This document shows positions 45,085 through 46,336 of a stretch of DNA of 64,000 nucleotides, one piece after another. Each line of letters opens with the position of its first letter. The first letter of the stretch is position 1. This stretch comes from an uncultured Verrucomicrobiae bacterium (GTDB lineage: Bacteria; Chlamydiota; Chlamydiia; Chlamydiales; Rhabdochlamydiaceae). A model generated the notes under the pieces. The model was not told the DNA's origin. It did not search any database and worked only from the letters and a program-made list of their open reading frames with translations. The stretch is from assembly GCA_963818965.1 (NCBI GenBank), contig CAWFUG010000008.1, forward strand, positions 160,001 through 224,000. Direction: 5' to 3'. A program made the position numbers and the translations under genes.

Positions 45085-46336
45085 TCGTCCAGCGCAGCGC
45101 GCAGTCTTGAGTCCTCGAGACTGTGCGCAAAGCGATCTGCCAGTCGAACGCCTCAAATCCCACTCTCTTTTTTTGCTGCGGGCGGTTCGCACGAAGTAGA
45201 TGTCCGAAAAAACGCCCCTCTCCCTTTACCATTTCCACCTTCAAAGTGAAGAGAAGTCCCTGAGAGAAAATTTCCACATCTTGTCCTAGTTGAAACGTCG
45301 TTCCTTTTTCACCATTGATGAGAATCTGATGGTCGGGATGAAAATTTAGGTAAAAGGAAGATTCGATCGACTCCTCCCCTTCTGGGGGTACTTCTAGAGG
45401 AAGGGTCATTTCTATACCCCGCGCGCTTGAGGATGGTGCATTTGAGCGCGCGGGGTATAAATAATCCCCCTCAATAGACCACGCTGCCTTTCTCGCATCA
45501 AAAGAGAGAGAGTGGAGCTGTTCCTTATTTCCCCAAAAATGCAAGTAAGGTTTAGAAAAAGCGAGCGCTGGGACGGCTTTCTCTTCCCCCACACTCTGCT
45601 CATCGAAAGGCTGGACCAAAGCGCCCAGCAAATGGACCCGCTCTCTTAGAAGCGCGCGTCGAGAATATTCTGAGCCAAAATAGTGCCCCATGAATAAATC
45701 GAATAGAGTAGGAGCCGGCTCGCCCTCCTCTTGTACCGGTAGAAAAAACGGAGCCCCAAGGGGAGCGTGCCAATGGACCATTGCGGCTTCTAGCCAGTCT
45801 TTTCTCTCCACACCCTTCGATTTTGCCAGCTGGTAGGCGATTAACAGCTCGATACATTCTTCAGCAGAGTGGGGAACGCTACCGGGTGTGTTTTGGGGGT
45901 CGGTGTAGCTTTTGAGTTTGAAATGAGAGGGATCCGCCGACTGGACAATTCTCTCCATGACGCTACTGAGTCGAGAGGGCAATTCAGGGCCCAACACAGA
46001 GGAAAAATCAGCCACGATCCAGTGCAATAGCGGCAAGAGATCGATCCCTGTCGTACGACGACGGCACCGCGGGTAGTCATGGACATAGATGGGAAAGTTC
46101 CCCTCCACTTCGAAAGGAAGGAGCCTCTCCAATAACCCCTTCGCCTCCTGGATATTTTCTACCAGGCGGCTTCTCAAAAGAGCCAGTGCATAGCAGAAAT
46201 TCTCCAGAAGCGGAATCGTATCGTGCCTCTCCTCTTTGGCCTCATGACAAAAGTGGATGAAGCCCGTCTGAGGACTTTTGCGTTTTGCCGCTGCTAAGAG
46301 ATTGAGATCAAAAGGGCGTCGTTGTTTTAGATCCAT
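45044..46336 (-). CDS. Hypothetical protein carrying an in-frame family B insertion
   Basis: 430-aa ORF overlapping the HAD gene end; contains [15 protein letters not shown] encoded by the repeat. Confidence 0.75.
45413..45459. mobile_element. Family B mini element (Y-Y') inside a CDS
   Basis: TATACCCCGCGCGCTTGAGGATGGTGCATTTGAGCGCGCGGGGTATA. Confidence 0.85.

Follow-up and report, generated by a model that had tools for sequence, protein, structure and literature searches.

The locus described here raises the question of how a palindromic repeat can enter a conserved protein-coding gene and leave it readable. The window, that is, the whole 64-kb stretch of DNA that was analyzed, carries a 47-nt palindrome inside such a gene, and we consider that it is probably a non-autonomous, MITE-like insertion, which survived as it lay in frame at a tolerant site. 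In-frame palindromes are established in Rickettsia, enterobacteria, Bordetella, and Opitutus, according to parts of a series of reports (PMC2229807, PMC2759123, PMC3733652, PMC3184786, PMC10969869, PMC11602168, PMC9723776). Beyond what a first-pass annotation of this DNA had noted, we observed that the parent repeat family is spread across chlamydial genomes and that palindromes have entered the same gene repeatedly and independently.

An in-frame palindrome and its host protein

The coordinates 45413-45459, the 47-nt length, and the TATA ends given in the first-pass annotation were all correct, and the element does lie inside an open reading frame (ORF), as had been claimed, since a 430-aa ORF at 45044-46336 on the minus strand encloses it (Table 1). 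Its arms form a perfect 15-bp inverted repeat with a single-stranded DNA fold of z = -6.6, none of 200 shuffles folding as well on either strand, and its first 35-36 nt match the copy at 26941 and both ends of the copy at 50176-50260 at 91-94% identity (blastn, E 1e-10 to 3e-8). The 47-mer is therefore a repeat and not a chance hairpin. A covariance model of the family did not match it, so its family link rests on the blastn matches of the Y arm.

Table 1. Coordinates of the host gene, its neighbors, and the repeat copies in the window
Feature	Coordinates	Strand	Remarks
Host gene (430 aa), conserved among environmental Chlamydiota	45044..46336	-	No family in Pfam or NCBIfam; fold predicted
Cof-type HAD hydrolase, upstream	46327..47241	-	10-nt overlap with host gene start; homologue in 56 of 80 loci
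Convergent, overlapping ORF, which we take to be enoyl-ACP reductase (fabI-like)	44155..45084	+	Pfam adh_short_C2; homologue in 59 of 80 loci
Y-Y' palindromic element, TATA ends	45413..45459	.	47 nt; perfect 15-bp arms
15 added codons, residues 294-308	45413..45457	-	15-residue gap in homologue P0001
Putative TA target copy, end of codon L293 on minus strand	45458..45459	.	Other copy at 45413-45414; duplication inferred from P0001 gap
Y-Y' copy, 85 nt, intergenic	50176..50260	.	Closest model for the parent of the 47-mer
Hybrid copy, 168 nt, intergenic	26941..27108	.	Y left arm and X right arm, not pairing
Full-length X-X' copy, 168 nt, intergenic	51493..51660	.	Single long hairpin, z = -17.9
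X-X' deletion derivative, 31 nt, intergenic	26853..26883	.	26 + 9 nt, 4-nt overlap
X-X' derivative, 59 nt, intergenic	53848..53906	.	Upstream of first Met of aminotransferase ORF
Palindrome, 30 nt, intergenic	47906..47935	.	TATACCC ends are the sole link to the family
Lone Y arm, degenerate, intergenic	62163..62183	+	

Excision of the element that leaves one TA removes 45 nt (residues 294-308) and restores EGDYL-EMTLP in frame, as the first-pass annotation had calculated, with the further expectation that orthologues would show a 15-aa gap at this point. The best homologue, P0001, which is 92% identical (383 of 418 aligned columns), reads IEGDHL-EITLP, where a single 15-residue gap coincides exactly with the insertion site; the 15 residues, which an orthologue devoid of the repeat might have kept, are missing from it. 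A search in which 7,998 candidates were scored found 135 relatives; the insert peptide is absent from every other homologue among the best 120 of these 135, and the peptides YPARS and SARGI are absent both from the 121 proteins comprising the query and these best 120 of 135 relatives and from all other ORFs among the 3,531 in the window and 80 genome loci. The claim that the repeat adds peptide sequence to a protein therefore holds for the reading frame and for the filled/empty pair at the protein level, and the comparison of these two alleles confirms the in-frame insertion of the repeat into the gene. The open frame needs no design, because the 47-mer is free of stops at 66 of the 76 TA-by-orientation placements within the ORF.

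The empty site is seen as protein in P0001, whose spacing is what a 2-bp TA target would give. No other symmetric target agrees with the 15-residue gap, and TATA as a 4-bp target was rejected since it would leave an in-frame stop. From this spacing we infer a TA target duplication at the site, as had been proposed earlier, although a 45-nt unit placed beside a TA without duplication would give the identical sequence.

The 80 loci were gathered with one peptide pattern that requires L or I at a position where the window gene has V, and because of this mismatch both this genome and the sister allele P0001 are missing from them; the closest of the 80 loci shows only 45-49% identity. The two nearest Atlas clusters to the host protein are mostly from Chlamydiota. 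Named homologues likewise indicate environmental Chlamydiota, and the organism may stand near Rhabdochlamydiaceae; several close records bear the names Verrucomicrobia or Acidobacteria, which we regard as loosely assigned. A PDB sequence search with the host protein gave two weak matches (E 0.2-0.3), and AlphaFold2 returned a confident two-domain model, consisting of an N-terminal helical barrel and a beta-sandwich, with a pLDDT of 91.4 with the insert versus 94.1 without it. The barrel is like the folds of glycoside hydrolases (Z about 11, rmsd 4.0), and the whole predicted protein is like polysaccharide lyases (Foldseek E 7e-6, TM 0.41).

In the models, the order of strands and helices is identical with and without the insert, and the block 291-300 has a pLDDT of 56. 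The first-pass annotation had expected the insert to model to a surface loop, and this is largely borne out by residues 290-303, which form a low-confidence loop, but not by the inserted residues 304-308, which continue the next strand with a shift in register. The empty model places the insertion point within the second strand (E292-296) and not at the turn, and the filled model would cope with this by letting the inserted residues 304-308 take over that strand. The insert is thus predicted to extend a beta-hairpin of the C-terminal domain while the fold is kept. The length of this hairpin varies among unfilled homologues, and that of the window protein and P0001 is shorter than most.

Signs of decay are absent from the filled allele: it retains all seven invariant family residues, it is nearer the consensus at six of 24 differing columns and the empty one at three (15 ties), and the end branches are 0.037 versus 0.048 in the filled/empty comparison on a quick tree. 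At 45044-45084, the last 12 codons of the host gene are unlike the shorter tail of its sister and share 41 nt with the end of the convergent fabI-like gene. Promoters and terminators predicted in 43800-48000 were, overall, about as numerous as chance would give (5 vs 2.9 +/- 1.5; 5 vs 5.6). Indels that are either real or products of assembly have shifted the frame of the host gene in L039, L061, and L077, where the break holds no element.

The parent repeat family and its mobilization

The window holds seven whole TATACCC...GGGTATA palindromes (30, 31, 47, 59, 85, 168, and 168 nt) and one lone arm. All seven whole copies start with TATACCC and end with GGGTATA, the family copies in the window stay open for at most 55 codons, and six of the seven are intergenic, the 47-mer being the sole coding one. 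Set against the 1,936 of 2,542 TA sites in the window that are coding (76%), the single coding copy among seven (p = 0.001) shows that the family is depleted from coding DNA. The 47-mer consists of the left 36 nt and the right 15 nt of the 85-nt Y-Y' copy joined over a 4-nt overlap, and the 31-mer stands to the 168-nt X-X' copy in a like manner as 26 + 9 nt, so that such an overlap is present in both short forms tested.

Several other repeat arrangements were observed in the window. At 26733-27108, a 61-nt segment is duplicated, with copies 149 nt apart, and a ACCACAGAG hairpin, the 31-nt X-X' element, and the Y/X hybrid lie between or beside these copies, as if elements insert into one another and drag adjoining DNA along. 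A second palindromic family built from ACCACAGAG units occurs outside the listed ORFs at 5321-5405, 17366-17409, 20725-20803, 26757-26841, 32439-32529, and 34990-35057, and other types of long inverted repeat occupy 59266-59437, 59499-59634, and 37515-37582, the last being a perfect 33-bp pair.

Full-length relatives of 164-171 nt are present in other genomes, the full length of the family being given as 165-168 nt, and a covariance model matches 12 of the 80 other loci at E <= 0.1, six of which are its training loci. Sequence conservation of the arms among family copies is limited to the terminal TATAC; the arms turn over in sequence and yet stay paired. No Rfam family matched in the window, plasmid searches that used the L004 insert and two window elements as queries returned chance-level matches only, and the 168-nt copy had no blastn match at E <= 1 in E. 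coli genomes (20,395 records). Family peptides were found inside no longer protein in two frames (16 and 47 candidates), which is weak evidence, and phmmer over 1.84 billion representatives returned one 61-aa ORF, itself an element translation. In L069, degenerate family copies at 4817-4983 (E 1e-8) and 942-1108 (E 0.09) occupy open N-terminal frames in two paralogues; they represent a coding insertion of some age or else precede the true start. A hairpin of another type flanks a PD-(D/E)XK gene (PF13366, a family whose name we take to be GxxExxY) at L005 17831-18363 with 41-bp inverted repeats; the same type is also found empty at L021 8984-9058, and the L005 unit looks like an autonomous parent.

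We propose that the 47-mer represents a shortened form of a TA-ended hairpin repeat, 165-168 nt at full length, that is spread among environmental chlamydiae. The joining of the ends of a longer Y-Y' copy, which is seen directly in the 47-mer, may have been caused by slipped-strand deletion inside the hairpin; the short form would then have been inserted in trans at the TA of codon L293, with duplication of this TA. An IS630/Tc1-mariner-type transposase is the classical candidate for the mobilizing enzyme, to which we would give slightly less than an even chance. No IS630-type or HUH transposase is encoded among the 48 ORFs of the window or among 69 ORFs beside palindromes in the loci, and the one integrase-core IS, in L055, is not beside the family of the window. 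Furthermore, the lack of arm conservation beyond the terminal TATAC is awkward for a transposase that reads terminal repeats.

This bears on a possible, though rather unlikely, alternative in which a neutral insertion occurred with no DDE transposase: an enzyme recognizing hairpin shape (HUH or a small nuclease), or template-switch copying, would set a 45-nt unit by a TA, and the apparent duplication would be part of the element. In nine aligned copies from seven genomes, 53 of 75 pairs have changed on both sides, a number reached by none of 500 shuffles, with 13-24 pairs in slid controls; columns without variation comprise the terminal bases, the apical TATT/AATA stem, and an internal AAAG/CTTT stretch that adjoins a fixed mismatch; and the L005 gene between its inverted repeats would represent a small-nuclease unit with palindromic ends. 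However, arm-to-arm correction in a DNA palindrome also yields covariation without selection on shape, and the aligned copies were partly picked as palindromes. Additionally, no nuclease gene was found between the arms of the window's family, the arms of the Y/X hybrid at 26941 do not pair, and ERIC, Correia, and RUP elements, as part of PMC2229807 describes them, typically show TA ends and a net difference of 2 bp.

Three further observations concern the ORFs of the window. A glucose-6-phosphate dehydrogenase is split into two ORFs (62279-63325 and 63388-63834) by a frameshift or an assembly error. Two pairs of adjoining 716-755 aa ORFs without a Pfam family lie at 32540-37299 and 18358-22959, the first pair being tandem paralogues with a 300-nt stretch common at 99%. 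At 60301-62099, a TPR chaperone-like ORF is followed by an SseC-like ORF, which suggests a type III secretion translocator cluster.

Repeated insertions into the host gene

Eight further chlamydial alleles of the host gene carry in-frame palindromic inserts of 50-63 aa that belong to other families. Five are seen at the DNA level among the 80 loci (L004, which is P0010, L008, L014, L020, and L052) and three as protein (P0057, P0063, and P0101), which with the window makes nine events, three of them on protein alone. A palindrome test on 81 inserts of at least nine residues in the query and the best 120 of 135 homologues placed four (P0010, P0057, P0063, and P0101) above the null maxima (26.8-43.8 vs 16-20), and the insert of the window, at 14.4, was indistinguishable from the null. 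The L008 insert has a near-identical empty sister (P0032), P0057 and P0063 are reciprocal filled/empty alleles, and the insert of P0101 has a match (E 2e-4) in a palindrome that entered the HAD gene of L001. On the quick tree, which has 65 rows (the nine filled alleles and 56 of the unfilled homologues), the nine events need at least seven changes, and one filled pair differs in both site and element.

In-frame palindromic inserts also occur elsewhere, at L001 2725-2804 (27 aa in the HAD hydrolase) and L075 16070-16100 (about 36 aa, in a homologue of the window ORF 41656-42381). Ten of 18 inverted repeats in conserved ORFs, with median homologue gaps of 0-4 residues, were rejected as chance. 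L014, L025, and L065 are titled Chlamydia trachomatis and carry the host gene and environmental-type repeats; they are probably mislabelled genomes.

On P0001 numbering, the insertion sites are 141, 289, 290, 290, 290, 293, 319, 345, and 380, so that five of the nine events fall in one beta-hairpin (residues 289-293), within which mapped positions are good to a few residues only. For five events in seven residues, p = 3e-5 when sites are taken as uniform, 0.0007-0.02 when 8-20 equal loops are assumed, and 0.004-0.02 with 8-12 equally tolerant loops. The junction repeats in L004, L020, and L052 are 4-5 nt and differ from those of the TA family, which makes a shared DNA target unlikely; since these inserts do not belong to the TA family, tolerance on the part of the protein accounts for the convergence better than a DNA target does. 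In the host gene (window excluded), five of the 50 inserts tested over 32,700 aligned residues are palindromic, compared with three (one marginal) of 46 tested in about 171,600 residues of 24 neighboring families, from which four apparent shadow-ORF families were omitted (p = 0.004, a comparison in which the gene served as bait and the repeat load of each genome is ignored).

The same clustering and rate could be read as a sign that the added peptide or mRNA hairpin is useful, and that repeated events at one hairpin reflect positive selection and not tolerance. We regard this as improbable: the nine peptides have neither sequence, length (15-63 aa), nor frame in common, the inserts are missing from close sisters, hairpin length already varies where no insert is present, and the counts are subject to the bait effect and uneven repeat load just mentioned. 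Still more improbable is a gene that is dispensable or silent in these lineages, in which in-frame inserts pile up and no modified protein is made. Such a view would agree with the low identity within the family (mean column identity 28%), the frameshifts in 3 of 80 loci, and the lack of a known function, but all nine filled alleles are full-length ORFs, the frameshifts look like single-base indels unconnected with an element, the filled allele has no excess of disruptive change, and the gene neighborhood is conserved. Mis-assembly, or loss by the sister allele of an old segment, would suit the short hairpins of P0001 and the window protein but is highly improbable given the base-exact junctions, the element's own substitutions relative to other copies, and the absence of its peptide from the other homologues compared.

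Under the MITE-like insertion that we favor, the net gain of 45 nt, stop-free in the sequence, would lengthen the variable C-terminal beta-hairpin as modeled, and selection would purge nearly all other coding insertions while this one stays as a neutral or near-neutral passenger. The same selection filter would explain why unrelated palindrome families are repeatedly kept in this gene and mostly in this hairpin.

Relation to known repeats and implications

The first-pass annotation had compared the element with Rickettsia palindromic elements (RPEs), and the analogy stands for the mode of action, whereas no homology to RPEs was found and coding copies are one of seven here versus about half of RPEs in part of PMC10969869. 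Parts of PMC10969869 and PMC2229807 describe the shared traits: a hairpin repeat, an obligate intracellular host, an in-frame position in a conserved gene, and a probably neutral peptide. The differences are that the host is of another phylum, environmental Chlamydiota by its homologues and neighborhood and not Rickettsia, that the element has 47 nt compared with the 105-150 bp stated for RPEs in the portions of the literature covered, and that several unrelated families here converge on one gene and one hairpin. No RPE model in NCBIfam matched, and Rfam gave nothing, an absence that, having no positive control, is weak. The phenomenon is one known from other phyla, and the element works like an RPE by analogy.

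The 30-168 nt copies, dispersed, with TA-ended terminal inverted repeats and no encoded transposase, have these features in common with TA-ended MITEs. The terminal bases of the family presumably resemble those of ERIC/RU-1. ERIC/RU-1, Correia/NEMIS, and RUP elements, as described in parts of PMC2229807 and PMC2759123, are likewise under 200 bp, with terminal inverted repeats, TA at both ends, and a long stem-loop, and are mostly intergenic, with internal deletion forms and occasional in-frame fusions. By contrast, the window copies are not A+T-rich (GC 0.53-0.58), their arms change yet pair, and no cognate IS lies in the window or beside the elements in the loci; homology to the 127-bp enterobacterial consensus of ERIC/RU-1 was not found, the E. 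coli records being unmatched by the 168-nt copy. GTAG/CGTC REPs, including those of Opitutus terrae in the PVC superphylum, also form in-frame palindromes in genes of a related superphylum, and one gene may be struck in several species, as with truB, and with recB in two Xanthomonas species, in which the sites nearly coincide (PMC3733652, in part). REPs are 20-40 bp palindromes with GTAG or CGTC at one end, whereas the family in the window has TATA ends on both sides, no GTAG/CGTC foot, and a longer parent; no RAYT (HUH) transposase was found in the window or beside the elements in the loci. YPAL/RU-2 of Yersinia, with about 168 bp, a hairpin, and possible in-frame fusion, differs in having no TA termini and duplications of 3-26 bp, in the account that part of PMC2229807 gives; in its duplications it is nearer to the other families in the host gene (L004, L020, and L052).

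Regarding the statement that no such case was known for chlamydiae, we likewise found no prior report in the largely open-access literature, in which the supplements of PMC11602168 and PMC3733652 may list chlamydial repeats. The string 'chlamyd' occurs nowhere in the accessible parts of PMC10969869, PMC3184786, and PMC11602168, and a Rhabdochlamydiaceae paper contains neither 'palindrom' nor 'MITE'.

Coding palindromes, usually presented as a peculiarity of Rickettsia with scattered cases elsewhere, are hereby extended to another obligate intracellular phylum. Close filled/empty allele pairs are available here, in contrast to most RPE work, and nine independent insertions in one gene make it possible to separate landing sites from protein tolerance. 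Predicted chlamydial proteins are lengthened by such inserts, which can lead alignments and domain calls astray, and arms that change but remain paired bear on an open question, namely what mobilizes ERIC- and RPE-type repeats. In a more far-reaching interpretation, which we consider unlikely, the elements would form a phylum-wide, undescribed class of TA-ended hairpins recognized by shape and moved by an agent not of the IS630 type, which together with at least three unrelated palindrome families would be a steady source of new peptide, the host gene acting as an insertion trap with nine events, five of them in one beta-hairpin. If this were true, such a class would provide a comparative system for the movement of selfish palindromes and their absorption into proteins.
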